Source: Telmatocola sphagniphila
GTDB taxonomy: Bacteria; Planctomycetota; Planctomycetia; Gemmatales; Gemmataceae
NCBI RefSeq assembly: GCF_018398935.1
Contig: NZ_CP074694.1
Coordinates: 3,630,001-3,662,000, forward strand
Length of the DNA: 32,000 nucleotides
Direction of reading: 5' to 3'
Every line of letters starts with the position of its first letter. The first letter of the stretch is position 1. The notes beneath the pieces were generated by a model. That model saw nothing but the letters and a program-made list of their open reading frames with translations. It ran no database searches and had not been told where the DNA came from. The translations under genes were made by a program, and so were the position numbers. Of the stretch, positions 7,583 to 28,479 are shown piece after piece.

Positions 7583-9118
7583 ATGCGCAGTCTCCTGATC
7601 GCTACGATATTTTTTTTCGCAATTTCTCCACTCCAGAGCCAAGAACGGCCAATCCCCTTCCCCGCTAAGAACAATAAAGACACCTCGAAATCCGAAACTC
7701 TCTGGGACGCGGCCTACTGGAAGGATGAAAGTGGCCAGTTTCACAAATTCGGCCACGTCCAAACTCAGCTCGAGCACGTGGTTCGGGACGGCAAAGAAAT
7801 CATTCGAGCCACGAGAGTTTACGATCTCAAAATGACGAGAGGAAGAGCGGTCTTCACCCTGGACGACAAACAGATCACGGAGGAATCCGAAGGCAAGTTG
7901 GTACGCATGGAGTACACCTCCAGTCTGTCCAGAATACAAAAAGAACTGACTGCCCTACCCAAGGGATATCTCATCTCCACAAAAACGCCGACCGAAAATT
8001 ACGAAGACAAGATCGGAGACTTTCCTCTGGTGGGATTTGCAACCGAACTTCAGATCTTGAAAGAACCTCGCCAACTCGAGGACAAGTTCGATTATTACTA
8101 TTTCGAGCCCACCCTGAATGCGGCTGTCAAAGTGCTGGGCAAAATCGCGGGCAAGGATCGATTCAAATCACCCGAAGGTGCGATTCTGGAATGGCAGCGG
8201 ATCGATCTTCAGGGTGCAAAGATCGGAGGAATTCTGCCTCCCTCCGCTTCGATCTGGGTCGATCCCAAAACTCGAGAAATCAAACAGACAATGATGGAGA
8301 TTCCGGGGATCGGCTACGCCACCCTGGTAAGAACCACCGGTGATCAGGCGAAAGCGGCTAACGGTAAGCTGCCCGATATTCAAGCGAATACCGATATTCC
8401 TCTCTCTCAACGAGTGAACCAGATTCACTCGTTGCCTCAAATGAGTTATCGTATAACTCTGGAATTTCCGATCGCACCGGGCGATTTACTGAAACCCTCC
8501 CATCTCCACACAATCGTGCAGCGTCAGGATAATCTGAGCTTCGAACTCACTGTGAAAGCTCTCCGCGAACCGCCTAAGAACGCGGTAAAGGCCGAGCCAG
8601 CGCCGCCAGAGTATCTGAACTCCTGCCACTATATTACCTCCAATGATGCGGAGGTGATCAAACTTTCCAACACGGCCAGCCGGGGTCAGGTTAATAATTG
8701 GGATAAAGCTCAGGCAATGGAGAGCTGGTTGAATAAGAACTTTCGTTTTGTGAGCACCAAAGTGATGGACACTGCGGCACAAGTCGCCAATGATCCGAAT
8801 GGTCTCAGTGGCGATTGCACGGAAGTAGCCATGTTGCTGGCGGCTATGTGCCGGGCTCAGGGAATTCCCTCGCGCACGGCCATCGGAGTCATCTACGCGG
8901 ACAATCCCAAGCCCCATTTCGCATTTCATATGTGGACCGAAATCTACATTCAGGGAACCTGGCTCGGGCTGGATGCTACTTTAGGAAGAGGATCAGTTGG
9001 ACCCGGGCATATCAAAGTGACCGATGCGAGCTGGGAAGGAGAACGAGGACAGACGCCTTTGATGCCAGTGATGCAGTTCATCGGTAAGCATCCGAAGATA
9101 GAGGTCTTGAAGAACTGA
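7583..9118 (+). CDS. Secreted transglutaminase-like domain protein
   Basis: 511-aa ORF with GGAGGTG just upstream of the ATG. Signal peptide MRSLLIATIFFFAISPLQSQE. The C-terminal transglutaminase-like Cys-His-Asp core reads GDCTEVAMLLAAMCRAQGIPSR ... HFAFHMWTEIYIQGTWLGLDAT. Confidence 0.8.
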   Translation: MRSLLIATIFFFAISPLQSQERPIPFPAKNNKDTSKSETLWDAAYWKDESGQFHKFGHVQTQLEHVVRDGKEIIRATRVYDLKMTRGRAVFTLDDKQITEESEGKLVRMEYTSSLSRIQKELTALPKGYLISTKTPTENYEDKIGDFPLVGFATELQILKEPRQLEDKFDYYYFEPTLNAAVKVLGKIAGKDRFKSPEGAILEWQRIDLQGAKIGGILPPSASIWVDPKTREIKQTMMEIPGIGYATLVRTTGDQAKAANGKLPDIQANTDIPLSQRVNQIHSLPQMSYRITLEFPIAPGDLLKPSHLHTIVQRQDNLSFELTVKALREPPKNAVKAEPAPPEYLNSCHYITSNDAEVIKLSNTASRGQVNNWDKAQAMESWLNKNFRFVSTKVMDTAAQVANDPNGLSGDCTEVAMLLAAMCRAQGIPSRTAIGVIYADNPKPHFAFHMWTEIYIQGTWLGLDATLGRGSVGPGHIKVTDASWEGERGQTPLMPVMQFIGKHPKIEVLKN

Positions 9119-9554: not shown

Positions 9555-10544
9555 ATGATGCGTTATCTCTCCCGTAACGGAAGCCGGAAAGGCTTCACTC
9601 TCATTGAGCTGTTGGTGGTTATCGCCATTATCGCGATTCTCATCGGCCTGCTCCTTCCGGCCGTGCAAAAAGTTCGTGAAGCAGCAGCTCGCGCTTCCAG
9701 CCAGAACAATTTGAAGCAAATCGGCCTCGCGATGCACATGTACAACGACACGATCGGAACCCTGCCGAACAACGGCACCAACGGCTTCTGGCCCAGCCCG
9801 AACGTTTGGAAGGATAACAATGGCCAAATCATGACGGCGTCATGGTGCTACAAGATCCTGCCCTACGTCGAACAAACCAATCTTTATAACAACTACAACA
9901 TTACCACCAAGCTGAAGGTTTTTGCTGAACCTGGTCGCGTGAACGGTGGTCGTGGCCCCGCTACCTATGATGGCAGTTCGAACAACAACATGGGTATTAA
10001 TGAAGCGGACAATCCTTCGAACCATGCTCTGGGTGCATTGACCGATTATGCCAGCAACTCGAATCTTATTGCTGACGGCTGGAATAATCTTGGTGTTATG
10101 AACACCATGACCCCGTCCATCCAGGGAATTATTGACGGCTCCTCCAACACGATTTTGGTCGGTGGCAAATCCATCCAGACCACGCAATATGTTGGCAACT
10201 ACGGTTGGGACTGGGACGAAACAGTTGGCTCAGGCGCTTGGGGTGGTACCGAGCGTGCTTTCATGTGGGACGGTATCGACGGCAACTACAACAACGGTCA
10301 AAATCCGAACTACAATCTCCCTAATCCCGGCTACTGGAACGACTTGGCTCGCTCGATCTTCAAAGACGGTATCTGGGGTGTAAACGGTTTCAACCATAAC
10401 AATAGCTGGGGTGGTCCATACGCTGCAGTTGGCCTGTTCCTCTTTGCTGATGGTTCGGTTCACTCCTTGTCCTACACCATCGACAAAGTCACCATGGGCA
10501 AACTCTTGATGCCGGCTGACGGCCAAGTTGTTTCGATCCCCTAA
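9555..10544 (+). CDS. DUF1559-type protein with prepilin N-terminal cleavage/methylation domain (paralogue 1)
   Basis: 329-aa ORF. Motifs: [64 protein letters not shown], and C-terminal [13 protein letters not shown]. This is the architecture of the planctomycetal DUF1559 / H-X9-DG family. Confidence 0.9.
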
Positions 10545-10574
10545 GTTCACCACCGGTAGAAAAAATACTCTTTC

Positions 10575-10603
10575 AAGTCGGCATGATAAACTCATGCCGA
10601 CTT
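10575..10603 (+). terminator. Intercistronic hairpin (attenuator/terminator-like), copy 1
   Basis: AAGTCGGCATG-ataaact-CATGCCGACTT, an 11-bp perfect stem followed by CTTTCATTTG. It lies between the DUF1559 gene and the lipoprotein gene. A homologous hairpin sits at 12788-12816. Confidence 0.5.
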
Positions 10604-10657
10604 CTTTCATTTGTCCCCTCCGCTTTACCCAAAGTTATGAGATGGAGATTCAATTAG

Positions 10658-11218
10658 ATGTTTTTCCAAAAAACACACCGATTTCTTGGCTTGGCGGCTT
10701 TGCTACTGGGATTCAGTCTGACTTCGATGGGCTGCTCCGGAAGTGTTGAGTACGCAGACATGACTGGTTCGGTATCGATCGACGGCAAAGCAGTCACGGC
10801 TGGCTCGGTTTACATTGTCTTGGCGGATAACCCTGAAGTAACTGGAGGAGGCGTGATCAAGGGGGATGGCACCTATACGTGCAAAGCACCCGTGGGCAAA
10901 ATCAAGGTCGCTATTCAAACGTTGGCCTTTAAACCGGGAGGGGCAAATGACAGCAAAACCAAATCCTCTGCCCCCAGCACAGCACCGGGAGCGAAAGGCG
11001 GAGCAGCTAAAGGCCCACCCGCTGGATATAGTAAAGAAGGGTTTAGCAAAAAGGGAACTACTACACCGCAAGCGCCGGCTTGGGCGTCGGGAGACTCGGA
11101 TCATCCTCCCGTATATGTAAAGATTCCCAGTAAGTACGAGAAAGTGGAAACCTCGGGTTTAACCTACGACATCCACAAGGGTTCAAACACTATTGAGATC
11201 ACTCTCGCTGAAAAGTAA
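10658..11218 (+). CDS. Small lipoprotein, carboxypeptidase-regulatory-like beta-sandwich (paralogue 1)
   Basis: 186-aa ORF. It has a lipoprotein signal with lipobox LTSMGC (Cys26). GSVSIDGKAVTAGSVYIVL...DGTYTCKAPVGKIKVAIQT is followed by a K/G/A/P-rich linker. GGAG lies upstream of the ATG. Confidence 0.75.
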   Translation: MFFQKTHRFLGLAALLLGFSLTSMGCSGSVEYADMTGSVSIDGKAVTAGSVYIVLADNPEVTGGGVIKGDGTYTCKAPVGKIKVAIQTLAFKPGGANDSKTKSSAPSTAPGAKGGAAKGPPAGYSKEGFSKKGTTTPQAPAWASGDSDHPPVYVKIPSKYEKVETSGLTYDIHKGSNTIEITLAEK

Positions 11219-11761: not shown

Positions 11762-12751
11762 ATGTCACGGTCTCTCCACCGGAATCGCAAAGGCTTTACC
11801 CTCATCGAATTGCTGGTTGTAATCGCCATCATTGCAATCCTCATCGGGTTATTATTGCCCGCTGTGCAGAAAGTCCGGGAAGCGGCGGCCCGGGCCTCCA
11901 GCCAGAACAACTTGAAACAGATCGGACTGGCCCTGCATTCCTACAACGACACTTTCGGTAATCTGCCCAACAACGGCACCAACGGCTATTGGCCCAGTCC
12001 CAGCGTTTGGAAAGACAATACCGGCCAGGTCATGACGGCCTCCTGGTGCTACAAGATCCTTCCTTATGTTGAACAAAACAACCAGTACAACAACTACTCG
12101 GCCACGGTCAAACTCAAGGTTTTCGCCGAACCGGCTCGAGTCAATGGCGGCCGCGGACCTGCGACCGATGGCAATACCGCTACCAACGGAGGCGTCAGCG
12201 GGATCAACGCTGCCGACAACCCCAATAACAAAGCTTTGGGCGCTCATACCGACTATGCCGGGAATTGGAACGTTATTCAGGACGGCTGGAATAACAAAGG
12301 CGTTCTCAACGCTCTAACCCCTTCCATTCAAGGCATTCAGGACGGTTCCTCCAACACAATTATCGTCGGGGGCAAAGCCATTCAAACCTCCCAGTACAAC
12401 GGCAATAACGGCTGGGACTGGGATGAAACAATTGGGACAGGCGGCTGGGGCGGAACCTGCCGCGGCGCCATGTGGGATGGGATCGATAACAATTACGACA
12501 ATGGACATAATCCCAACTACAACCTTCCGGTTGGAGGCGGCTCCAACGACTTGGCTCGCTCCATTTTCAAAGATGGAATCTACGGAGTCCACGGCTTCAA
12601 CCACAACAACAGCTGGGGTGGGCCCTATGCCGCGGTCGGCCTCTTTCTCTTTGGCGATGGCTCGGTTCATTCACTCTCCTACACGATCGACAAAGTCACC
12701 ATGGGCAAATTGCTAATGCCCGCCGATGGCCAGGTGGTTACCGTTCCCTAA
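11762..12751 (+). CDS. DUF1559-type protein with prepilin N-terminal cleavage/methylation domain (paralogue 2)
   Basis: The ORF track starts at 11708. I place the start at ATG 11762 ([20 protein letters not shown]...) because AGGAG lies 8 nt upstream and the N-terminus then matches paralogue 1. By eye it is roughly four-fifths identical to 9555-10544. Confidence 0.88.
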
Positions 12752-12788
12752 TTCTTCATTCGCCCTGTTGCAATAATTGACAACTTCA

Positions 12789-12815
12789 AGTCGGCAGGAT
12801 TTTCGCCTGCCGACT
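12789..12815 (+). terminator. Intercistronic hairpin (attenuator/terminator-like), copy 2
   Basis: AGTCGGCAGG-attttcg-CCTGCCGACT, a 10-bp stem followed by CCTTTCGTTTAT. It occupies the same position as copy 1. One stem pair has changed from T:A to G:C. Confidence 0.5.
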
Positions 12816-12860
12816 CCTTTCGTTTATCGATCTTCCTACTACCCTCAGAGGTCTCCCCTA

Positions 12861-13412
12861 ATGTCTCACTTGAGATTCCTTCGCAGCGCCGGCTTATTTT
12901 TACTCCTGTCGAATACCGTGATTTTTTCTTCGGGCTGTTCTAATGAAGTGGAATACGCAGACATGACTGGGTCCGTCAGTATCGAGGGCAAACCAGTGAC
13001 AGCCGGTAGCGTTTACGTGGTGCTGGAGGAGAACAAAGAAATTACTGCTGGAGGGATGATCAAAGGAGATGGGACTTACTCCGTGAAAGCCCCCGTCGGC
13101 AAAGTTAAGGTGGCCATCCAAACTCTCGCTTTCAAACCCGGCGGAGCCAATGAGGAGAGAAAGGCAACAAATGTTTCCACCGCACCAAACAAGAACGGAA
13201 AAACGGGACCACCCGCAGGTTATACCAAAGAGGGATACGTCAAAAAGGGTACCAATGTTCCACCAGCACCCGCCTGGGCTAATGGAGATCCTGAACATCC
13301 CCCCAAATACGTTAAAATTCCCGGCAAGTACGAAAAAATTGAAAGCTCAGGGCTCGCTTACGAGATTCATCGAGGTGCGAATGCCATCGATATTTCTCTA
13401 TCCGAAAAATAA
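12861..13412 (+). CDS. Small lipoprotein, carboxypeptidase-regulatory-like beta-sandwich (paralogue 2)
   Basis: The ORF track starts at 12777. I prefer ATG 12861 (MSHLRFLRSAGLFLLLSNTVIFSSGC, Cys26 lipobox) because the longer version would read through the conserved hairpin. By eye it is about 70% identical to 10658-11218. Confidence 0.75.
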   Translation: MSHLRFLRSAGLFLLLSNTVIFSSGCSNEVEYADMTGSVSIEGKPVTAGSVYVVLEENKEITAGGMIKGDGTYSVKAPVGKVKVAIQTLAFKPGGANEERKATNVSTAPNKNGKTGPPAGYTKEGYVKKGTNVPPAPAWANGDPEHPPKYVKIPGKYEKIESSGLAYEIHRGANAIDISLSEK

Positions 13413-17025: not shown

Positions 17026-17155
17026 ACAGATAGTTTTTTAGAGGCTCTTATCCGGCAATTACAAACAAAAAGCTCGGCCAGTTCTAAAATGGCAAAGTTG
17101 CGGGCGCTTTTTTGATCAACTAAGAATCGTGTTACGTTTACTTAGGAATGTAATT

Positions 17156-17794
17156 ATGAAAAAGTATTTCGTCGTTGTTTTAGTTTTGGCAGTCATGCTT
17201 TGCTTCCTATCGATAGTTCTTTTTAATGTTCGAAATATTGCTGATCGTGCGAGGGCTATGGATTGTTTAGCAAGGCTCTCAATTGCATCCCAAAACTATT
17301 CTGCTACTCAGAATTCATTCGTTACTTCGGGAAAAAGGATAAATTCGACAGATAGTTTTTGTTCTTCTTGGCGAGTGCAGCTTCTTCCTTATCTTGATGG
17401 CCAAGAATTTTATAGCTCATACAAATTTATGGAGCCGTGGAATAGTGAATATAATATATCATTAATCAACAAAAATATGTACGCATCAAGAAATTATCGT
17501 ATTGATATAAAAGATAATATCGAATCGAACGTTTATTGTCTGAGCTATCCAAACACAAAAATAAATTTGGAAAACTCGTGGAAGATACTGTTGTATGCCA
17601 ATTCTGACTTTAAACAAATATGGACTGACTACCGAAGCCCTGTAGAGATATTCGATGAGAGCAAGATAACTTCCTTGGTTAAAGGTGATGGATATATAGT
17701 ATTTATAAACGGTAACGTTGCCAGAGTGAGTGATGGATTTCTTCTAATAAGATGCAGTGGTACTGGTTTGGACGAATTTCTTGTTCATCCATAG
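17156..17794 (+). CDS. Low-GC, highly diverged DUF1559-like membrane-anchored protein lacking the prepilin motif
   Basis: ORF 17129-17794, with the likely start at the MKKYF ATG at 17156. It has a hydrophobic N-terminus (FVVVLVLAVMLCFLSIVL). ADRARAMDCLARLSIASQNY resembles the DUF1559 AREAARRxQCxNNLKQIxLAxHNY region. SWRVQLLPYLDGQEFYSSYKFMEPWNSEYN resembles the SWRVxLLPYLEQ...EPW block. No GFTLIE cleavage/methylation motif is present. Confidence 0.6.
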   Translation: MKKYFVVVLVLAVMLCFLSIVLFNVRNIADRARAMDCLARLSIASQNYSATQNSFVTSGKRINSTDSFCSSWRVQLLPYLDGQEFYSSYKFMEPWNSEYNISLINKNMYASRNYRIDIKDNIESNVYCLSYPNTKINLENSWKILLYANSDFKQIWTDYRSPVEIFDESKITSLVKGDGYIVFINGNVARVSDGFLLIRCSGTGLDEFLVHP

Positions 17795-18001: not shown

Positions 18002-18676
18002 TGTACCCCTCACGTAATATTTGCCGTTTTTTGCGATTTAATTCCTAGAGGAATTGGCCCTCTCTTGAACAAAAGATCGCCGTGATCGACGAGAGCACGG
18101 CGTAAAGCAATTCGATCGATACGGCGAGCTTCCTGCTCGAGCAACACCCCCGAAGGAGATTTTCCTTCCTCCTTCATAGCTCGGTTCCGATGGATTTCAA
18201 CAAGCTCTCGGAACTGATCGCGAGATTCTGTTGCGACTCTCTCCCGACTTTTCCAAAGCGTCTCGGGAGTAGGACCCAGACCTCCTCTCGGTCGAGCCAA
18301 GGCATTGGCTTCCCGTCGAGCCGCCTCCACATCCTCAGCGTTCCACACTTCCGGATGGCCTTCCCAGGCAGCTCTACGTTCGATTCGACTTTTCAAAGAT
18401 CCTATGCCCGCTTCGATCGCACCGTTATATTGTGGCCTCCTCGGCGGAGAGTACAAGCCGAACACGCCTTCTCGCTGCAAAAATTCTTGGACCACTTCGG
18501 CAATAAACGGAGAACGGCAGCGCCTCGCGCCGGACTACGCCGGCCCATCGCAACACCCCGGTCTCGGTCATCAGACCGCTCCAAAATTCCCCGGTATTCG
18601 GCAAAACACCCTTCAAAATGCCAAAATCCCTACAGCTTTAATTCGGCTACAAATGCGACCAGAATTCGGTTCGGGA
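18002..18676. repeat. Direct repeat copy A (~675 bp, near-identical to 19690-20364)
   Basis: Copy A aligns base for base with copy B at an offset of 1688 bp. Only a handful of mismatches are visible (for example K/E and I/M differences in the encoded ORF). It begins TGTACCCCTCACG, and identity ends after ...GAATTCGGTTCGGGA. Confidence 0.9.
18010..18534 (-). pseudogene. 5'-truncated integrase-core (rve) DDE transposase remnant, copy A
   Basis: The frame is open for 174 codons upstream of the TGA at 18010-18012, bounded by an in-frame TAG at 18535-18537. The product ...RSPFIAEVVQEFLQREGVFGLYSPPRRPQYNGAIEAGIGSLK... is only the C-terminal third of an rve domain. It keeps the region around the catalytic Glu but both catalytic Asp regions and the HTH are missing. 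The outer end starts with TGT, as in IS3/IS481-type termini. Confidence 0.65.
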
Positions 18677-18778
18677 CACCAAAATTCCCTGGAATTCGGC
18701 AAAACACACTTCAAAATGCCAAAATCCCTACAGCTTTAATTCGGCTACAAATGCGACCAGAATTCGGTTCGGGACACC
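18583..18778. repeat. 98-bp tandem repeat x2 (3 mismatches) with internal AATTCGG sub-repeats
   Basis: Unit 1 is 18583-18680 and unit 2 is 18681-18778. The unit reads AAAATTCCCyGGwATTCGGCAAAACACmCTTCAAAATGCCAAAATCCCTACAGCTTTAATTCGGCTACAAATGCGACCAGAATTCGGTTCGGGACACC. A single, slightly shorter unit is present in copy B (20271-20364). Confidence 0.85.
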
Positions 18779-18800: not shown

Positions 18801-18998
18801 TTGCTCTACTTCGGATCCGACAACGGCGTGCGAACATCGGCGATTCTCTCCAGGTTCACTGCAAGTTGCCTGATGCAAAAACGATCCCAGGTCATATCTT
18901 CCCGATGTCCTGATCCGCCTGCCGATCACAACTTATTGTCTCGCAAGAGTCGAAACAGGGCAGGACTATTTCAAAGACTTACCGGTTTTCCGCAGTAA
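18801..18998 (+). pseudogene. Possible decayed IS3-like transposase fragment
   Basis: The 65-aa ORF reads ...FGSDNGVRTSAILSRFTASCLMQKRSQVISSRCPDPPADHNLLSRKSRN. It loosely follows the rve pattern SDNGxxxTSxxFxxxxxxxGIxxSxSRxGxxxDNxxxES. The resemblance is weak and judged by eye only. Confidence 0.2.
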
Positions 18999-19338
18999 AT
19001 ATTGTATCAGTAGTGCCTTCAACTCTTATAGCTCTTAGCAACATGAATAAGGTATAGTTTTTGTAATATTCACTAGATTCATTTTGAATTTTCTTTAATA
19101 TTTCCATATTTGGCACAGTGCCAGACAGTTCCATTTCTGTCGACATATTGCCAACAAAAAAAAGCGATTTATTTATATATTTTTCTATTGTAGGCGCTTG
19201 ATACATGAGACTATTTTGATAATTTTCCGAAATTCCCTTTACTGAATTCATATATCCAATAATGTAACCAAAAAACATAAACAATACAGCGATACATATA
19301 TAAACTATTTTTTTGTATACTATCAATAGAATTTTCAT
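18979..19338 (-). CDS. Hypothetical small membrane-anchored protein (very low GC)
   Basis: 119-aa ORF with an N-terminal TM segment (IVYICIAVLFMFFGYIIGY). The composition is K/N/I/Y-rich and AT-rich. It lies between the two 675-bp direct repeats. No family recognised. Confidence 0.45.
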   Translation of the reverse strand: MKILLIVYKKIVYICIAVLFMFFGYIIGYMNSVKGISENYQNSLMYQAPTIEKYINKSLFFVGNMSTEMELSGTVPNMEILKKIQNESSEYYKNYTLFMLLRAIRVEGTTDTIFTAENR

Positions 19339-19689: not shown

Positions 19690-20364
19690 TGTACCCCTCA
19701 CGTAATATTTGCCGTTTTTTGCGATTTAATTCCTAGAGGAATTGGCCCTCTCTTGAACAAAAGATCGCCGTGATCGACGAGAGCACGGCGTAAAGCAATT
19801 CGATCCATACGGCGAGCTTCCTGCTCGAGCAACACTCCCGAAGGAGATTTTCCTTCCTCCTCCATAGCTCGGTTCCGATGGATTTCAACAAGCTCTCGGA
19901 ACTGATCGCGAGATTCTGTCGCGACTCTCTCCCGACTTTTCCAAAGCGTCTCGGGAGTAGGACCCAGACCTCCTCTCGGTCGAGCCAAGGCATTGGCTTC
20001 CCGTCGAGCCGCCTCCACATCCTCAGCGTTCCACACTTCCGGATGGCCTTCCCAGGCAGCTCTACGTTCGATTCGACTTTTCAAAGATCCTATGCCCGCT
20101 TCGATCGCACCGTTATATTGTGGCCTCCTCGGCGGAGAGTACAAGCCGAACACGCCTTCTCGCTGCAAAAATTCTTGGACCACTTCGGCAATAAACGGAG
20201 AACGGCAGCGCCTCGCGCCGGACTACGCCGGCCCATCGCAACACCCCGGTCTCGGTCATCAGACCGCTCCAAAATTCCCCGGTATTCGGCAAAACACCCT
20301 TCAAAATGCCAAAATCCCTACAGCTTTAATTCGGCTACAAATGCGACCAGAATTCGGTTCGGGA
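19690..20364. repeat. Direct repeat copy B (~675 bp)
   Basis: Near-identical to 18002-18676. The flanks on both sides are unrelated to those of copy A. Confidence 0.9.
19698..20222 (-). pseudogene. 5'-truncated integrase-core (rve) DDE transposase remnant, copy B
   Basis: It has the same truncated frame as copy A. The 161-aa ORF-track product differs at two residues (AMEEEG and RRMDRI versus AMKEEG and RRIDRI). Confidence 0.65.
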
Positions 20365-20452
20365 TAATGAGCAGGCGCAAAAAAGAACCGGGAAACCTGC
20401 CCGCCAAAGGCACGTTCCCCGGAAGATTCATTAGGGTCCGCTTTAGGCCGGA

Positions 20453-20794
20453 CTAATTTCTTATGTCAAATGTCTGGTCTTGAGGACGCTCCGTCTTGTA
20501 TCGCATTATCAGGCCAACCTCTAGGAGTTTAACTGCTGCAATTCCGCTAAGAACAAAAGGGATTTGCTCTAAATCGGCAATAATAGATTCGTATGCGATG
20601 CCATATTCACCAGTATCGGCAATGTATTCACGGAGCTGTTCCATTTGCTCCCGAAACGAGAGACGGTTTTCGGGATAATGCACTGCAAGATTTTTCTGCA
20701 TTTCAAGCTCTTGCAGAACATCCATGAGTCTTGACTGCACGATCTTGTCCAGCTGCTCTTCGCTCATTTCTTCCGACCTCCATGTATCGATCAT
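20453..20794 (-). CDS. Putative toxin-immunity protein (small, acidic, all-helical; MafI-like pattern)
   Basis: 113-aa ORF. Its ATG overlaps the TGA of the upstream EndoU-like module (ATGA). The ...EYIADTGEYGIAYESIIADLEQIPFVLSGIAAVKLLEVGLIM... pattern resembles small helical immunity proteins annotated as the MafI family. The call rests on position plus pattern. Confidence 0.55.
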   Translation of the reverse strand: MIDTWRSEEMSEEQLDKIVQSRLMDVLQELEMQKNLAVHYPENRLSFREQMEQLREYIADTGEYGIAYESIIADLEQIPFVLSGIAAVKLLEVGLIMRYKTERPQDQTFDIRN

Positions 20795-21225
20795 TGGTTC
20801 CTTGGAAGATTCGTCGGGAACCCTGTTACGATGCGGCCGTTTAAAGTATCGACCACGACTTTTATATCTACTCCATCAACAGTCTTTGTGCCGGAAATGT
20901 AACCTCGTGCATCTGGCCGGGTCCACCGTATAGCCGGATCAGTGGCAATGTCAGAAACTTCTCCAAGTATCTTGCCATCACTCCAGCCCTCGCGAAACTC
21001 GCTCTTCCCAGGTTTGCCAGTCCCAGGGCGGTGACCGCCTCCTTTGCCTGGGCCATCGCCTTCAAGAATGTGCTTCTGTCCCTTGGGATCAACTAAACTT
21101 GGTTTTTCCGGAACTGCCGTCTTTGGGGCAATCTTTGCCTCTTTTGCAACTTTTTCAGCATCTTGTGCAACTTTGGCGGCTTTGTCGGCGGGTGGTACTG
21201 GCGATCTCTTAACTCCTATCGCTTG
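20791..21225 (-). pseudogene. Start-less orphan toxin module: bacterial EndoU-like RNase C-terminal domain
   Basis: Absent from the ORF track. By hand translation, 144 codons are open between TGA 21228-21226 and TGA 20793-20791. The product is QAIGVKRSPVPPADKAAKVAQDAEKVAKEAKIAPKTAVPEKPSLVDPKGQKHILEGDGPGKGGGHRPGTGKPGKSEFREGWSDGKILGEVSDIATDPAIRWTRPDARGYISGTKTVDGVDIKVVVDTLNGRIVTGFPTNLPRNQ. There is no in-frame ATG or TTG, and the only in-frame GTG is about 20 codons from the end. The HIL-G...GGGH...PGKSEF..WSD.KI...SD.ATDP...GVDIKVV...G.I.TG.PTN pattern matches my memory of EndoU_bacteria toxin domains. Confidence 0.6.
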
Positions 21226-21506
21226 TCATAACCCGTTATAGCGAATTGTCTTGTGTGGCACTGGCTCTGTCAGTGCGTATTCCAAGCAACTAACTCACTC
21301 AAACTATGTGATCATCGAATTCCTAGTTCAACAGAATCTCTGGATGCAACTCGAAGCCTTTCCAAATACCCGAGCTTTCGCGCACCGGCAAATAGTCAGT
21401 GCCACACACCTATCCCCCTCCCCTGACCAACAATTATCCAATCCCATCCAATTTTTCCATTCATCCACTTTACGAGGGAGTTTGTATTCATTTCCATCCC
21501 GATTCG

Positions 21507-23372
21507 GCTAGGCCTTAAACCAGCGTAGTTTTTTGGAGAATTGTTTCGATTTATCGAAGAAAGCTCGAAATCCTTTTTGTTTTCTGCGGTTTGTGTAAGT
21601 AACCGCTTAACAAATCGACAGTCGCAAAAAGGAGTTTCGAGTGAATGTTATTTTCGGACGTTGGTTTCAAAAATGCAAGAGTCGAATCGAACGTCGCCTG
21701 GCTAAGCGAGAGGCCGCGATGACCTTCGCTCCTTCTTTCGACGCCTCCAACATTCATTACGAAGTCTCCGAACGCGTGGGGGCGATCAGTTGCGGAGGCC
21801 TCGGGGCCATGCACCTTCTGGCCCGGCGTATCGGACTGATCGACGACATCGACGAGAAGCTGCATCTGCTCCAATTTCAAAGGCCTTACTCGGAATCGGA
21901 CCACGTGTTGGCCATCGCTTACAATTCCCTTTGCGGGGGTACCTGCCTGCAAGACATGGAACTGCGTCGCACGGACGAAAACTTTCTCAACGCCTTGGGC
22001 ACTCAGCGTTTTCCCGACCCGACTACTTCGGGCGACTTTTGTCGACGCTTCGATAGTGGCAGCATCCAGGCTTTGATCGACGCTTTCAACCAGACCCGTT
22101 TACGCGTCTGGTCGAAGCAACCCGATTCCTTTTGGGAATGCGCGAAGATCGACGCCGACGGCAGCTTTACCCAAACGCGTGGCGAGCGTAAAGCGGGGAT
22201 GGACATCAACTATAACAGAGACTGGTGTTACCACCCCCTGGCGGTGACCCTGGCCAACACCGGTGAGACGCTGAGCATCGTCAACCGTCCCGGCAATCGC
22301 CCTTCGCACGAAGGGGCCGCGGTCGAACTCGACCGGGCTCTTTTGCTGTGCCTTCAAGCGGGCTTTCGCAGGATCGTCTTTCGCGGCGACACCGATTTCT
22401 CGCAGACCACTCGCCTCGACGGCTGGGATGCCAACGCCAAGGTACGCTTTTATTTCGGCTACGATTCGAAGCAAAACCTCGAAGCAATCGCGGAAAAACT
22501 GCCGGAAGCGGCTTGGCACAAGCTCGAGCGTCCCGCGCAATACTCGGCGAAAGCGAAGTTGCGACACCGACGGGAAAACACCAAGGAGCGGATCGTCCAA
22601 GAGCGGGAATTCGTAAATGTGAAGTTGATCTCCGAAGCGGTGGCCGAGTTCGAGTACCAACCGACCGCTTGCCGAAGGGCGTATCGCCTGGTGGTGATTC
22701 GCAAGAATCTTTCCGTGGAAAAAGGCGAATCCGTTCTGTATCCGGACGAACGCTATTTCTTCTACATCACCAACGACCGGGAGTGCACGGCCGCCGAAGT
22801 CGTCTACGAAGCCAACGATCGCTGCAATCAGGAAAATCTGATAGCGCAGCTCAAGGGCGGTTGCCGGGCCTTGCACGCGCCGCTGCACGATCTGGAAAGC
22901 AATTGGGCGTACATGGTGATGGCCTCCCTGGCCTGGAACTTGAAAGCCTGGTGGGCCTTGACGTTGCCGGAAACTCCCGGTCGCTGGCGGGAAAAGCATC
23001 GGGACCAGAAGCAGTCGGTTTTGAAAATGGAATTCAAAACCTTCCTCAATGCTTTCATGCTTCTGCCTTGTCAGATCGTCCGGAAGGCCGGCCGCATCGT
23101 CTATCGATTGCTCGGCTGGAACCCGCACTTGCCGATCTTCTTCCGACTACTGAAAGCACTGAGGTGCTGATCGTTCGACCGACTGAAGTCGGGATCCGGA
23201 TGTCCCGATCCGATAAAACGCCGAGAGCTATTCGCGGAAAGGAAGAATGTTTGAAAAATAGAAGTATGCGTTCGGCCGAGCGAAAAGCTCCGGCGCGGAG
23301 GACTCATCGAACTATCTCGCTAAAACTCCCCACGGAATTGGCATCAAAAACTTCGCTTGTTTAAGGGCTAGG
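21507..23372 (+). mobile_element. IS1380-family insertion sequence (~1.87 kb), apparently intact
   Basis: It has imperfect terminal inverted repeats. The left end reads (G)CTAGGCCTTAAACCAGCGTAGTTTTT from about 21507. The reverse complement of the right end reads (C)CTAGCCCTTAAACAAGCGAAGTTTTT, ending at about 23372. About 22 of 26 positions match. The element encloses a single 509-aa transposase gene. Boundaries are uncertain by about 2 bp and no clear target-site duplication was seen. Confidence 0.7.
21641..23170 (+). CDS. IS1380-family DDE transposase
   Basis: 509-aa ORF with a GTG start 6 nt after AAAAAGGAG. Pattern: GGLGAMHLLARRIGLIDDIDEKL...YSESDHVLAIAYNSLCGG.CLQDMELRRTD...PDPTTSGDFCRRF...CYHPLAVTLANTGETLSIVNRPGNRPSHEGA...IVFRGDTDF. 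This matches my memory of IS1380 / DDE_Tnp_1_4-type transposases. Confidence 0.75.
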   Translation: MNVIFGRWFQKCKSRIERRLAKREAAMTFAPSFDASNIHYEVSERVGAISCGGLGAMHLLARRIGLIDDIDEKLHLLQFQRPYSESDHVLAIAYNSLCGGTCLQDMELRRTDENFLNALGTQRFPDPTTSGDFCRRFDSGSIQALIDAFNQTRLRVWSKQPDSFWECAKIDADGSFTQTRGERKAGMDINYNRDWCYHPLAVTLANTGETLSIVNRPGNRPSHEGAAVELDRALLLCLQAGFRRIVFRGDTDFSQTTRLDGWDANAKVRFYFGYDSKQNLEAIAEKLPEAAWHKLERPAQYSAKAKLRHRRENTKERIVQEREFVNVKLISEAVAEFEYQPTACRRAYRLVVIRKNLSVEKGESVLYPDERYFFYITNDRECTAAEVVYEANDRCNQENLIAQLKGGCRALHAPLHDLESNWAYMVMASLAWNLKAWWALTLPETPGRWREKHRDQKQSVLKMEFKTFLNAFMLLPCQIVRKAGRIVYRLLGWNPHLPIFFRLLKALRC

Positions 23373-25125: not shown

Positions 25126-28100
25126 ATGACGACTTCTTTCGCCAAAATACTATCGAGCTACCAATCAAGCCTCAAAAGTGAATCGTCGAATCTCAGCGAT
25201 TCTCAATTGCTGGGCCGGTTCGTCCGAAATCGACAAGCTTTAGCATTCGAACTATTATTCTGGCGGCACAGTGCCCTGGTCTGGGGTGTCTGCCAAAGAA
25301 TATTGAGTAACACCGCGGATGCCGAGGATGCTTTTCAGGCCACTTTTTTAATTTTAGCCAGGCGAGCTTGCACGATTCGAACGGATACTTCTCTGGCAGC
25401 GTGGCTGCACAGGACCGCCTGGCGTACCGCTTTAAATGCCCGCCGCAGTCGGTCGCGAAGATACCGGAGCGAACTCGCCGCAGCCACTTACTCGCCGAGT
25501 TCGGTTCCAGACTCCAGCAAAAAAGCCATTTCTTCAGAAATCCAGGAATTAATCGATCGGGAAATCAATCGATTACCCGATTCCTTAAGGTCGATTTTCG
25601 TGCTCTGCGAACTGGAAGGTAAATCGACGAACATGGTCGGGGCCGAATTGGGTATCCCGACTGGATCGGTGCGTTCCTATTTGACTCGAGCCAAGGAGAG
25701 ATTAAGAACAAGGCTGCAACGTCGCGGAATCGCTTGGGCCTCTTTGCCAATTGCAATCGTTCCCAGTGAAGTTTCCGCGGCAGCATCGCAAATTCTCACT
25801 TGTAGAGTGTCGCTAACAGTTCTTGAATTCGCCGCTGGGGCCACGGTCCTGGCCCTTAAAAAAATGGTTCTATTGGCATCGACCCTATTGCTAGTCACAG
25901 CGGGTATGGCTTATGGAGCTATACATTTTCACGCGAGTTATCTCGGAAATCCGAAGTTGAAAATATCAGATCCAGTATCCGAGAAGAAAAATGACGGGAA
26001 AAATTTTGGGGGTGACGCGAATTCGATGGAGGACAAACTGCCGGAAGGAGTACTGAAACGGATAGGAAGTTCGAGATTTCGAATGAGCGAACCCAGTTGG
26101 GATCTCGCGGTTTCACCGGATGGCAAGTGGCTCGCTTCGAATGCTGGCTTAATAATCTGGAATGCTCAGACAGGGAAAGTTCATTTAAAGATCCCACAAA
26201 TTGATACTTATCTTTCCTGGAATCGGATTGCAAAGTTCGATTCTGAATCCAAGAAGATTTTTTTAATTGATAATATCGCTTTTCGATGCTGGGACGCGAT
26301 CAAAGGCAAAGAGATTTATTCTGTACGCTTGAGAGACGAAGATAATGAAGAGAAGTATCTTATAGCATCGCAGTTCGCCAGGAGCAAGGAGGTGGCCGTC
26401 CTTATTTGGGATAATGGAAAATTTGAGATTCGTAGTACTGATTCGGGCCAAATCATCCGAAAGGGACAGCATCCATTCGTCCAAAATCCGCAAGTACCCT
26501 CACTGGTCCAAAGTCGTAGCATAAACGTCTCCATTTCGGACGACGGCGAAGTCTTCTTCTTAAAAAAAAGATTGGACCTACACGACAACAATGCGAAACC
26601 CACTTATCTCTTTAGCGATTCTAAAGGAAACCTAGAGCTCGATGATTGCTTGAAAGAGATTACAGATATCTCAAAATCTTTCTTTTTACCGAAAGAGAAG
26701 AAGTTGTTGGCAATCTTTAAAGACGAGGCGAGAGAATACAAGACACGTCTGGCAATTTTCGATCTGAAATTAAAAACCTGGTCCACGGATCTTAAACTCG
26801 ATCAGGGTTACGATACGTTCTCGCTATCGCCGGATGGAAAAACTCTTGCATTAACTTCCCAACGGCTCGATGCGTTTACGTTTGTCGATATCGCTTCCAT
26901 GAAAGAAATCGAAAAAATAAATGCGGATGGGCGCGCAGTTACCATGGCATTCTCTCCCGATGGAAAGTACCTTTATTATTGTTCCACTAGCGATACCATT
27001 AAGATCCTGGACTTGAAAAATAAGAACTTACATCCCCTTTCCTCGGACAATTTCTATGGGGGGAAGTTTTCAAACTCTGGCAACGAAATAATCTTTTACG
27101 GGGATTACCGCGAAAAAATCGACTGGGAATCTGGAAAGAAAATTCAATTTGGCAAACAGAAATCTTTAGACCCAAGATTTCGGCTCTACAATTGGTCTCA
27201 AAATGATCGCTATAAACTCGAACCGGATTATGAAAATAATTCGTTAAATATCAAAGACTCCCTCAGTAGCAAATCTCTCAAAATTCCGGATCTAGCTGAT
27301 TTTCAATATCATGCATTTTCTTGTGATGGATCACGCCTTGCTTTGTTGGATAAAAACGGCTCCAATTCGCATGTATACGTTTGGGATTTGGTAAAAAATC
27401 GGCAAATATTCCAGCTTGGAAATGCTCAATTTGGCCTCGTGCAGAAACTTTTATTATCTCCCGATGGCAAAAGATTATTTGTGTGTCAATCAAAAATGGA
27501 CGAACCCGTATCGGGCTTGCATTCCGAAGATGTCATTGATGTTTGGGGTGTTGACCAACAAAAACTACTGAATAAATGGAATACCGGAGGAGTTAACGGA
27601 ACTGGAATCTCTTCCGATGGTCAAATTGTTGCAATCAGTGAAAATGAGTACACCACAACCAACGAAGGCAGTGGTTACCTATTTCGTATTCAGATTCGAG
27701 ATTCTCAAAGCGGGAACCTGCATAGAAAATGGGAAGTAGGTAAGAGTGCAGGGAAAAAATTGGATAATTTCCGGGACTGGAGACCCTTTTTTACTTTTTC
27801 CTTTAGTTCAGTCCTCCCCTACAGCACAAACGATTTAGCGTTCTCCCCCGACAATCACTTCTTACTAAGCACCAACGCATATGGAGATATCCATCTCTGG
27901 GAGATATCTTCCGGCGAATTATTGCACACCTACCACGGGCATACTACCCACGTCTATCACTCAGAATTTTCCCCCGATGGCCGGCTTTTGCTCTCCTTCA
28001 GCCAGGAAGCCCCAGGCTTTCTCTGGGAAGTGTTTCCCAAGACCACTACCGCAGTAGATCCGAAAAAAGATTGGGAGGCTCTGGCCTCGACGGACGGGAA

Positions 28101-28479
28101 AGTCGTTTTCGAAGTCATGCGAAAGATGATCCACAATCCCCGATCAACGATCGATTTACTGAAGTCGGAAGAGTCCGCGATCAAATCGAACGAGAAAAAT
28201 CGAGTTTTGGATTTAATCCACGATTTGAGTGATAACAGCTTCCGAGTGCGGGAAAGAGCATCAAAGGAACTTGCGATGAATAGCGCAGTCTGGGCTCCCC
28301 TACTCGAAAAAGAAGTGAAACATACCTCCGCGGAGGTCCGGCAACGGTTGAGAGCAATTCTCGAAGCGGAAAGGCATTATTCTCCCGAAAATCTTCGTGT
28401 ACTTCGGGCGCAAACAATTCTCGAGTCCATTGGAACTCCTGAAGCACGGAAAGTTCTACCGAATTGGAAGATGGATTGA
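25126..28479 (+). CDS. ECF-type sigma-70 family factor fused through one TM helix to a WD40-like beta-propeller and a C-terminal helical repeat
   Basis: 1117-aa ORF. Sigma region 2 reads FELLFWRHSALVWGVCQRILSNTADAEDAFQATFLILARRA. Region 4 reads LPDSLRSIFVLCELEGKSTNMVGAELGIPTGSVRSYLTRAKERLR. The TM helix is MVLLASTLLLVTAGMAYGAIHF. At least 7 blades carry the SPDG signature (VSPDGKWLAS, LSPDGKTLAL, FSPDGKYLYY, FSCDGSRLAL, LSPDGKRLFV, ISSDGQIVAI, FSPDGRLLLS). The tail reads SFRVRERASKELA...AEVRQRLRAILE. Confidence 0.85.
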   Translation: MTTSFAKILSSYQSSLKSESSNLSDSQLLGRFVRNRQALAFELLFWRHSALVWGVCQRILSNTADAEDAFQATFLILARRACTIRTDTSLAAWLHRTAWRTALNARRSRSRRYRSELAAATYSPSSVPDSSKKAISSEIQELIDREINRLPDSLRSIFVLCELEGKSTNMVGAELGIPTGSVRSYLTRAKERLRTRLQRRGIAWASLPIAIVPSEVSAAASQILTCRVSLTVLEFAAGATVLALKKMVLLASTLLLVTAGMAYGAIHFHASYLGNPKLKISDPVSEKKNDGKNFGGDANSMEDKLPEGVLKRIGSSRFRMSEPSWDLAVSPDGKWLASNAGLIIWNAQTGKVHLKIPQIDTYLSWNRIAKFDSESKKIFLIDNIAFRCWDAIKGKEIYSVRLRDEDNEEKYLIASQFARSKEVAVLIWDNGKFEIRSTDSGQIIRKGQHPFVQNPQVPSLVQSRSINVSISDDGEVFFLKKRLDLHDNNAKPTYLFSDSKGNLELDDCLKEITDISKSFFLPKEKKLLAIFKDEAREYKTRLAIFDLKLKTWSTDLKLDQGYDTFSLSPDGKTLALTSQRLDAFTFVDIASMKEIEKINADGRAVTMAFSPDGKYLYYCSTSDTIKILDLKNKNLHPLSSDNFYGGKFSNSGNEIIFYGDYREKIDWESGKKIQFGKQKSLDPRFRLYNWSQNDRYKLEPDYENNSLNIKDSLSSKSLKIPDLADFQYHAFSCDGSRLALLDKNGSNSHVYVWDLVKNRQIFQLGNAQFGLVQKLLLSPDGKRLFVCQSKMDEPVSGLHSEDVIDVWGVDQQKLLNKWNTGGVNGTGISSDGQIVAISENEYTTTNEGSGYLFRIQIRDSQSGNLHRKWEVGKSAGKKLDNFRDWRPFFTFSFSSVLPYSTNDLAFSPDNHFLLSTNAYGDIHLWEISSGELLHTYHGHTTHVYHSEFSPDGRLLLSFSQEAPGFLWEVFPKTTTAVDPKKDWEALASTDGKVVFEVMRKMIHNPRSTIDLLKSEESAIKSNEKNRVLDLIHDLSDNSFRVRERASKELAMNSAVWAPLLEKEVKHTSAEVRQRLRAILEAERHYSPENLRVLRAQTILESIGTPEARKVLPNWKMD

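Follow-up and report, generated by a model that had tools for sequence, protein, structure and literature searches.

The DNA considered here is a 32-kb stretch (the window) of the genome of Telmatocola sphagniphila, a Gemmataceae planctomycete from peat (PMC3327967). The element in question is a small minus-strand module, in which an open frame for an EndoU-type toxin domain without a start codon is followed directly by an intact small gene (Table 1). Direct translation of the minus strand from 21225 to 20791 gives 144 sense codons and then a TGA at 20793-20791. The original prediction held that this frame has no usable start, and a codon scan agrees: the first ATG, GTG or TTG is a GTG at codon 124, and before it there are only ATA and ATT codons (codons 3, 32, 53 and later). 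The mechanical list of open reading frames (ORFs), which was called from ATG, GTG and TTG, has no entry for the frame. The claim that it had been missed is therefore correct for this type of ORF calling but not for the deposited genome, where it is already annotated: NCBI has an 'EndoU domain-containing protein' [Telmatocola sphagniphila] of 142 aa (P0001) that shares 99% identity with the frame and is begun at ATA 21219-21217. This ATA is simply the first table-11 start codon of the open frame and is no evidence of initiation. Exact-sequence look-ups of P0001 and of two transposase versions found nothing on record. A separate read assembly (Logan contig, SRR14506984), possibly built on the same reads as the genome, is 100% identical to the window from 20335 to 21537 (1203 nt) and reproduces both the missing start and the upstream stops. 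Because the two assemblies are identical over the frame, the missing start was not made by the assembler, and the frame passes the check for an assembly artefact.

The proposed EndoU RNase toxin signature is present. All of the motifs quoted for it were found, one of them reading PGKSEFREGW, and Pfam EndoU_bacteria (PF14436) matches the frame with 38.5 bits (E=1.7e-9; gathering cutoff 25.3). By Pfam's own criterion the frame is a member of this family, with metal-independent RNase activity predicted. The alignment is restricted to profile positions 64-128 of 129. However, partial coverage as a sign of a truncated domain is ruled out, because the whole clade that was tested, including the tip of a full-length 1600-aa RHS toxin, aligns only to profile positions of about 61-129. 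Since partial coverage is common to all tested relatives, the domain is complete for its clade, a compact sub-clade of the family. Among 5.8 billion proteins searched, 52 were homologous to the toxin frame, with E-values down to 1e-61 for the closest homologue from another source. H52, H65, K74 and S75 are all present in the frame, and across the 52 homologues each is either invariant or kept in at least 90%; a catalytic role for these residues would be in keeping with the EndoU literature (PMC3482391, PMC9086364). Nearly all other conserved columns are kept, the exceptions being R78 and Q144, at both of which at least 90% of the homologues have Pro.

Homologues of the toxin frame differ widely in their N-termini. 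Some have Rhs-core ends (P0013, P0017, P0031), some have polymorphic toxin-type HINT (PT-HINT) ends (P0002, P0025, P0049) and others have signal peptides (P0003, P0007, P0010), while the source names of some read 'filamentous hemagglutinin' or 'RHS repeat-associated protein'. Such variety is the signature of a polymorphic-toxin tip, and the domain is indeed the C-terminal tip of the 1600-aa RHS toxin (locus L007) and of a PT-HINT toxin (locus L001). AlphaFold2 models toxin residues 41-144 with a predicted local distance difference test score (pLDDT) >90 as a helix, a Gly-rich loop, a second helix and three strands; in the linker that precedes them the pLDDT is 51-64. Comparison of the toxin model with the PDB by Foldseek gave 7M5F as the best match, which is the BECR-fold, non-EndoU CdiA C-terminal domain (CdiA-CT) of Serratia marcescens BWH57. 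The match is weak (E=0.036, probability 0.97), and colicin D ranks 48th in the list. A BECR-type RNase fold is plausible from this model, which does not show a specific EndoU fold. Sequence searches of the PDB with the single sequence and with the family profile gave no link to solved EndoU structures. As a separate observation, a hydrophobic Gly/Ala-rich stretch of ~20-35 residues lies just 5' of the EndoU domain in P0002, P0003, P0007, P0010, P0023 and P0031. It occurs with otherwise unrelated N-termini, may be a membrane-entry segment, and is absent from the window copy.

The TGA of the toxin frame overlaps an ATG at 20794-20792 that opens a 113-codon ORF (20794-20453), and the original prediction took this ATGA arrangement as translational coupling of toxin and immunity gene. 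The overlap and the ORF exist, but the coupling is not supported, as the start of the immunity gene is most likely ATG 20767, which gives a protein of 104 aa. In all 28 small-protein homologues the first residue is the one that aligns with M10 of the 113-aa ORF, a GGAGG motif precedes ATG 20767, and NCBI lists the gene from this start (KIH39_14450, hypothetical protein, 104 aa). What creates the overlapping ATG is a change peculiar to the window copy, of the last toxin codon from CCG (Pro) to CAA (Gln). Given its own ribosome-binding site at the 20767 start, the immunity gene would therefore be independent of toxin translation. Genuine ATGA overlaps occur in distant members of the family (L002, L007), and those use the homologous start.

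Nearly all of the 28 homologues are 99-107 aa in length and share a strongly conserved core, GEYGIAYES...AAVKLLEVGL...KTERPQD; the window protein keeps all of the invariant family residues. AlphaFold2 gives a confident all-helical model (pLDDT 89.5), so that the helical protein of the original prediction stands, although a length of 104 aa is likelier than 113 aa. No Pfam family, including Imm*, SUKH, SuFu and CdiI_*, was found at E<0.01 for any of 29 immunity-family members, and an NCBIfam search gave no match for the protein, so comparison with profile models did not place it in a known immunity family. In the PDB there was no sequence match and no fold match better than E=2. A profile search of 1.84 billion cluster representatives (50% identity) returned 132 members of the immunity family. 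Six of the family's proteins (P0134, P0148, P0171, P0204, P0214 and P0240) are ~200-250 aa in length with two matched stretches, and are tandem fusions of two immunity domains. Beyond the stop codon of the window gene is a terminator-like hairpin with a z-score of -2.55 (3 of 200 shuffles fold equally well).

The same gene order is found elsewhere. Homologues of the small protein follow EndoU tips in loci L001, L002, L006, L007 and L008, which bears out the proposed toxin-CT/immunity layout. In L007, a Cellvibrio contig, a 1600-aa RHS-EndoU toxin is followed by a 103-aa immunity homologue with an ATGA overlap, and in L001, a planctomycete-like contig, a PT-HINT-EndoU gene is followed by a 104-aa immunity homologue. 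On the strength of this conserved gene order we regard the small protein as the putative cognate immunity protein. L001 is a textbook polymorphic-toxin cassette array, with the same EndoU cassette behind one of its four heads. The four PT-HINT heads (L001 500-11030) are 63-80% identical to one another and each has a different C-terminal tip; the small genes of the array are Imm33-like, CdiI_5 and of the 104-aa family, and the contig also carries DUF1559/N_methyl genes. L006 is a separate metagenomic contig that contains, at 7616-8315, a second start-less EndoU frame of 122 codons, in which no ATG, GTG or TTG comes earlier than codon 102. The immunity gene that accompanies it, of 104 aa, is intact, and ISAZ013-type transposase fragments lie ~1 kb away; the assembly of L006 is from nanopore reads, in which indel errors are possible. 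In L004 (8001-8411), a metagenome-assembled genome (MAG) of Isosphaeraceae, the immunity homologue is 136 aa with an N-terminal extension and there is no EndoU remnant. This copy, which has Rhs/YD-shell fragments, an Imm11-like gene and the tip of an AHH nuclease as neighbors, is an orphan immunity gene of another planctomycete.

Window, L001 and L006 are 83-85% identical to one another at the DNA level, the value for the window being 83% with both L001 (from 21129) and L006 (from 21112). In all three pairwise comparisons detectable DNA homology is confined to the toxin domain and the immunity gene, and ends at the immunity stop (20453). With synonymous sites as diverged as these, flanks free of constraint would no longer be detected in any case, so that the sharp cassette limits show where there is constraint and are no proof of independent insertions.

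Between the same three loci, the ratio of non-synonymous to synonymous substitution rates (dN/dS) is 0.046-0.067 for the toxin domain at dS 0.5-0.9, and 0.19-0.28 for the immunity gene at similar dS. The toxin domain thus evolves much slower than its immunity partner (20453-21112 compared with L001 and L006). In a three-sequence comparison, the changes assigned to the toxin-domain branches are 21 synonymous and 6 non-synonymous for the start-less window copy, 15 and 6 for the start-less L006 copy, and 9 and 2 for the HINT-attached L001 copy. Tested against 75% non-synonymous changes, the approximate share of non-synonymous sites, the counts of the window branch have a binomial p of 1e-8. A rough calculation from the branch counts suggests that the neutral part of the window's branch is at most ~1/8. 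With purifying selection this strong, either the loss of the front end, or a truncated horizontal arrival, was recent, or the frame is still selected. Columns that at least 90% of homologues conserve are altered by P78R and P144Q in the window and by P72S in L006, and by nothing in L001; these substitutions may be hints of early decay in the start-less copies, in numbers that are small.

Table 1. Features of the EndoU toxin-immunity module and its borders (window coordinates)
Feature	Coordinates	Strand	Basis or remark
Start-less open frame, 144 codons plus TGA; Lys/Ala-rich linker, then EndoU_bacteria domain	20791..21225	minus	Translation, codon scan, PF14436
Conserved toxin-domain core (PEKPSLVD...PRNQ), 5' part of the shared cassette	20794..21112	minus	83% DNA identity to L001 and L006; dN/dS 0.046-0.055
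Lys/Ala-rich linker, 32 codons, with an internal 17-nt repeat	21130..21225	minus	No homologue; homology ends; low pLDDT
TGA closing the toxin frame upstream	21226..21228	minus	Sequence reading; in-frame TTG and GTG just beyond
Immunity-type gene, 104 aa plus stop, all-helical, intact	20453..20767	minus	100% identical to NCBI KIH39_14450 (P0053)
Nine-codon in-frame extension MIDTWRSEE from the ATGA-overlap ATG	20768..20794	minus	Probably not the real start; in no homologue
GGAGG Shine-Dalgarno-like motif, 5-9 nt before ATG 20767	20777..20781	minus	Same place in L001 and L006
Terminator-like hairpin, then UUCUUUUUU (U run), ~30 nt after the immunity stop	20379..20422	minus	-25.6 kcal/mol
Spacer, 284 nt, stops in all three minus-strand frames, no recognisable toxin remnant	21229..21512		Translations, blastx, tblastn
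IS1380-family element, 1854 bp, apparently intact; transposase ORF 21641-23170, 509 aa	21513..23366	plus	NF033539, Pfam DDE_Tnp_1_4
Target-site duplication (G)CTAGG, 5-6 bp	left 21507..21512, right 23367-23372		Flanks both ends of the IS1380 element
Direct repeat, 675 bp, transposase-like ORF fragment, 3' border of unique island	19690..20364		Self-blastn; second copy 18002-18676, 99.4% identical

The original prediction described ~280 bp of frame-broken sequence upstream of the toxin frame and then an IS1380 element, and this is what is found: the 284-nt spacer leads into an insertion sequence (IS) whose transposase scores 263 bits against the NCBIfam equivalog NF033539 (cutoff 180). The inverted repeats of the element, CCTTAAAC[C/A]AGCG[T/A]AGTTTTT, lie at 21513-21528 and 23351-23366 and match at 14 of 16 bases; imperfectly, they extend to ~20 bp. 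The target-site duplication indicates a simple insertion into a previously continuous spacer. When the element is removed in silico, 318 nt of spacer stand before the toxin frame, and beyond them is the start of a divergent choice-of-anchor Q gene (23407). Severing of a larger toxin gene by IS1380 is ruled out by the presence of both inverted repeats, the target-site duplication and this 318-nt spacer. The spacer as a frameshifted PT-HINT, Rhs or pre-toxin remnant is likewise ruled out, as tblastn with the four PT-HINT heads against the window gave no match and blastx of the spacer with the N-terminal parts of all 51 homologues produced no match better than E=3.5. The spacer also contains a 15-nt inverted repeat (21252-21266 and 21394-21408) that is 93% complementary, with its arms 127 nt apart. 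The module occupies a unique island of 1.14 kb (20365-21506) between the IS1380 element and the 675-bp repeat. The Logan contig ends, at 20335 and 21537, are at these two flanking repeated elements, and because the contig breaks at the left end of the IS1380 element, further copies of the element in the genome are suggested. The region is IS-rich, and its GC content is patchy (29-60%).

As the original prediction stated, no parent toxin with a delivery domain lies in the window: no Rhs, HINT, filamentous haemagglutinin (FHA)-type, LXG, secretion or other delivery gene was found in the 32 kb. Among the 52 toxin homologues there is no other Telmatocola protein that shares the linker or the domain, and none of the 53 PT-HINT homologues is from T. 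sphagniphila. We also scanned the contigs of species-representative genomes with six patterns of 8 residues, of which the linker supplied two, and found only an Akkermansiaceae MAG; this negative is weak, because the window's own locus was not returned either, so that the T. sphagniphila genome may be masked in the collection or missing from it. The 5' 96 nt of the frame, which encode the linker, and the 284-nt spacer contain no PT-HINT, Rhs-core or VENN-type handle and match nothing. Toxins sharing the linker as a recombination handle, which the original prediction had envisaged elsewhere in the genome, were thus found neither by the protein searches nor by the weaker pattern scan.

Polymorphic-toxin cassettes are toxin-immunity pairs (Zhang et al. 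2012, PMC3482391), and orphan toxin fragments generally lack initiation signals, are toxic once given one, and are accompanied by immunity genes that are expressed (PMC3150448; PMC9086364). We consider it likely that the module is an orphan, or 'stranded', C-terminal polymorphic-toxin cassette, in which the toxin is not made and the immunity gene is the working part. This agrees with the central proposal of the original prediction, an orphan cassette composed of an EndoU domain without a start and an adjoining intact immunity-type gene, with no parent in the window. The cassette would comprise ~660 bp (roughly 21112-20453) and encode a compact RNase domain of the EndoU_bacteria clade and its cognate 104-aa helical immunity protein; elsewhere in bacteria it forms the 3' tip of RHS-repeat, PT-HINT and haemagglutinin-type delivery proteins. 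Because the frame has no delivery region, signal sequence, pre-toxin handle or canonical start, the toxin tip is most likely not made, or made only in traces. The immunity gene, in contrast, is probably expressed, since it keeps its own GGAGG and ATG 20767, its invariant residues and the terminator-like hairpin. By analogy with orphan cdiI, the immunity protein would neutralise EndoU toxins of the same clade and so guard against those delivered by neighbours. The module may have become stranded at, or have arrived at, a recombination-prone site recently; IS1380 landed later in the upstream spacer and, as its target-site duplication shows, was not the cause of the truncation.

Several observations weigh against this interpretation. 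Unlike classical orphan arrays, the module is solitary: it has no handle, and the surrounding 32 kb hold no parent. For the rest of the genome, it was by searching protein databases that a parent was looked for and not found. Apart from the three suspicious substitutions there is no decay of the toxin frame, which weakens the reading that it is not translated. The toxin model has its best PDB match, a weak one, in a BECR-fold CdiA-CT and not in an EndoU structure. Finally, a promoter scan returned one sigma-70-like match, which is at chance level, and planctomycete promoters are outside the coverage of the tool.

The frame might instead be a live stand-alone gene that is translated from an ATA or ATT start, so that a cytoplasmic RNase and its immunity protein act as a toxin-antitoxin, addiction or abortive-infection pair. 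The NCBI annotation of a 142-aa protein from ATA fits such a gene, as do the intact frame with purifying selection on its own branch (dN/dS 0.05), the equally well preserved second start-less copy in L006, and the short ATG-started homologues in complete genomes (P0015, 139 aa; P0023, 141 aa). However, the ATA call reflects only the first table-11 start in the open frame, and initiation at ATA and ATT in E. coli is roughly 1% or less of that at ATG. In addition, the ATA lacks a Shine-Dalgarno-like motif in front of it, in contrast to the immunity ATG with its conserved GGAGG; the first 40 residues are low-complexity, unconserved and poorly modelled; P78R and P144Q alter conserved columns; and the signal of purifying selection could predate a recent transfer or truncation. 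We therefore regard a live gene as unlikely. Slightly less likely again is a broader possibility, that start-less EndoU tips in planctomycetes of the Gemmataceae type are actively maintained, either as a non-AUG cytoplasmic RNase/inhibitor pair for addiction or abortive infection, or by handle-independent (for example, IS-assisted) redeployment. Its basis is that the window and L006 copies both lack start, delivery domain and handle, and yet have a dN/dS of about 0.05-0.07 and intact immunity genes.

We give an equally low probability to a silent reserve cassette, awaiting recombination onto a PT-HINT, Rhs or other scaffold elsewhere in the genome and thereby switching toxin and immunity type, as the original prediction had suggested. 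Switching by recombination is the accepted model for polymorphic toxins (PMC3482391; PMC3150448), the coding frame is well preserved, and in L001 the cassette sits behind one of four similar PT-HINT heads, which is a clear handle. The window copy has no such handle, its 5' 96 nt and spacer being unmatched, no second copy or PT-HINT scaffold from T. sphagniphila was found, and the 8-residue linker patterns occur nowhere else in the species-representative genomes, from which its own locus was also not returned. Very improbable is a small gene killed recently by the nonsense TGA at 21228-21226, which would have split the frame from upstream starts. An in-frame TTG (CLEY) and GTG (PVPH) do lie 10-18 codons upstream, between the next upstream stop and the TGA, and a kill of this type would agree with the selection data, which imply that translation was lost very recently. 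However, the ~20 extra residues have no homologue, signal peptide or delivery function and are shared by no relative, and the L006 copy is start-less by a different route. Almost no weight attaches to an artefact of assembly or sequencing by which a start codon or a longer gene would be concealed, as the Logan contig is identical over the frame, the upstream stops and the immunity gene, and the IS junctions are clean with a target-site duplication.

The favored orphan cassette can be compared with several known systems. It resembles the orphan modules of Poole et al. (2011; PMC3150448), cdiA-CT/cdiI and rhs-CT/rhsI, in that the toxin tip lacks both a delivery region and an initiation codon, the small immunity gene right behind it is intact and carries initiation signals of its own, and the toxin sequence is apparently still functional. 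Unlike the classical orphans, which are found in arrays just downstream of full-length cdiA or rhs and begin at a handle (VENN; Rhs PxxxxDPxGL), the window module is isolated between IS1380 and a transposase-fragment repeat. Because it has neither a parent gene within the 32 kb nor a handle, we describe it as an isolated or stranded orphan and not as an array member. With Tox-EndoU (PF14436) of the BECR-fold RNase toxins (Zhang et al. 2012), which forms the tips of CdiA-CT STECO31 and MafB, it shares the order His...His...Lys-Ser, the C-terminal position and an adjacent immunity gene. It differs in that the window clade is ~100 residues in length, with the second His and the Lys only 9 residues apart, and in that its immunity protein is unrelated to Imm28, SUKH and SuFu, the families listed for Tox-EndoU. 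A further likeness is to PT-HINT arrays of Gemmataceae-like planctomycetes (L001; P0110, 'polymorphic toxin-type HINT domain-containing protein [Gemmataceae bacterium]'), in which the ~660-bp cassette is 83% identical in DNA and the immunity ATG is preceded by the same spacer and GGAGG. In L001, however, the cassette is attached to one of four copies of a PT-HINT head, which differ in their tips, and the window copy has lost its head or never had one. Orphan immunity genes, such as the orphan CdiI of Salmonella Typhi, as cited in PMC9086364, and those of type VI secretion systems (PMC12247911), are similar in that immunity is kept without a usable cognate toxin and is presumed to be protective against competitors. 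In the window, in contrast, the toxin coding sequence is still fully present beside the immunity gene.

This type of arrangement has been known since 2011 and is ordinary polymorphic-toxin biology. Nor are such systems poorly described in Planctomycetes, as the original prediction had it; this is overstated, as planctomycetes are listed under many toxin and immunity families (Zhang et al. 2012, PMC3482391). The main value of the locus is for annotation: 'orphan toxin fragment' would be a better description of the 'EndoU domain-containing protein', and 'immunity protein' of the adjoining 'hypothetical protein'. What goes beyond routine is the compact helical immunity family, which is specific to the short EndoU clade, has no Pfam or NCBIfam model and no solved relative, and could be curated as new. 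Furthermore, two start-less copies under strong purifying selection offer a natural test of the rate at which orphan tips decay relative to immunity genes, and the same copies could show whether orphan immunity alone is a selected function in peat-bog planctomycetes.

Other features of the window are less closely connected to the module. Each copy of the 675-bp repeat contains a 161-aa minus-strand ORF that resembles the C-terminal part of a DDE/rve transposase and is matched by neither Pfam nor NCBIfam. Between the two copies lies a low-GC (29-40%) segment of ~1 kb with a 119-aa hydrophobic ORF (18979-19338), and a unit of ~98 bp recurs at 18581-18680, 18679-18778 and 20269-20364. A DUF1559 fragment lies in low-GC DNA at 17129-17794, and a paralogous stretch of ~1.65 kb, 69% identical between 9566-11218 and 11771-13412, carries planctomycete-typical DUF1559/N-methyl-type genes. 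On the other side of the IS1380 element, the plus strand from 25126 to 28479 encodes a 1117-aa protein in which N-terminal sigma-70 region 2 and region 4, of the extracytoplasmic function (ECF) type, are fused to long WD40/PD40 beta-propeller repeats.

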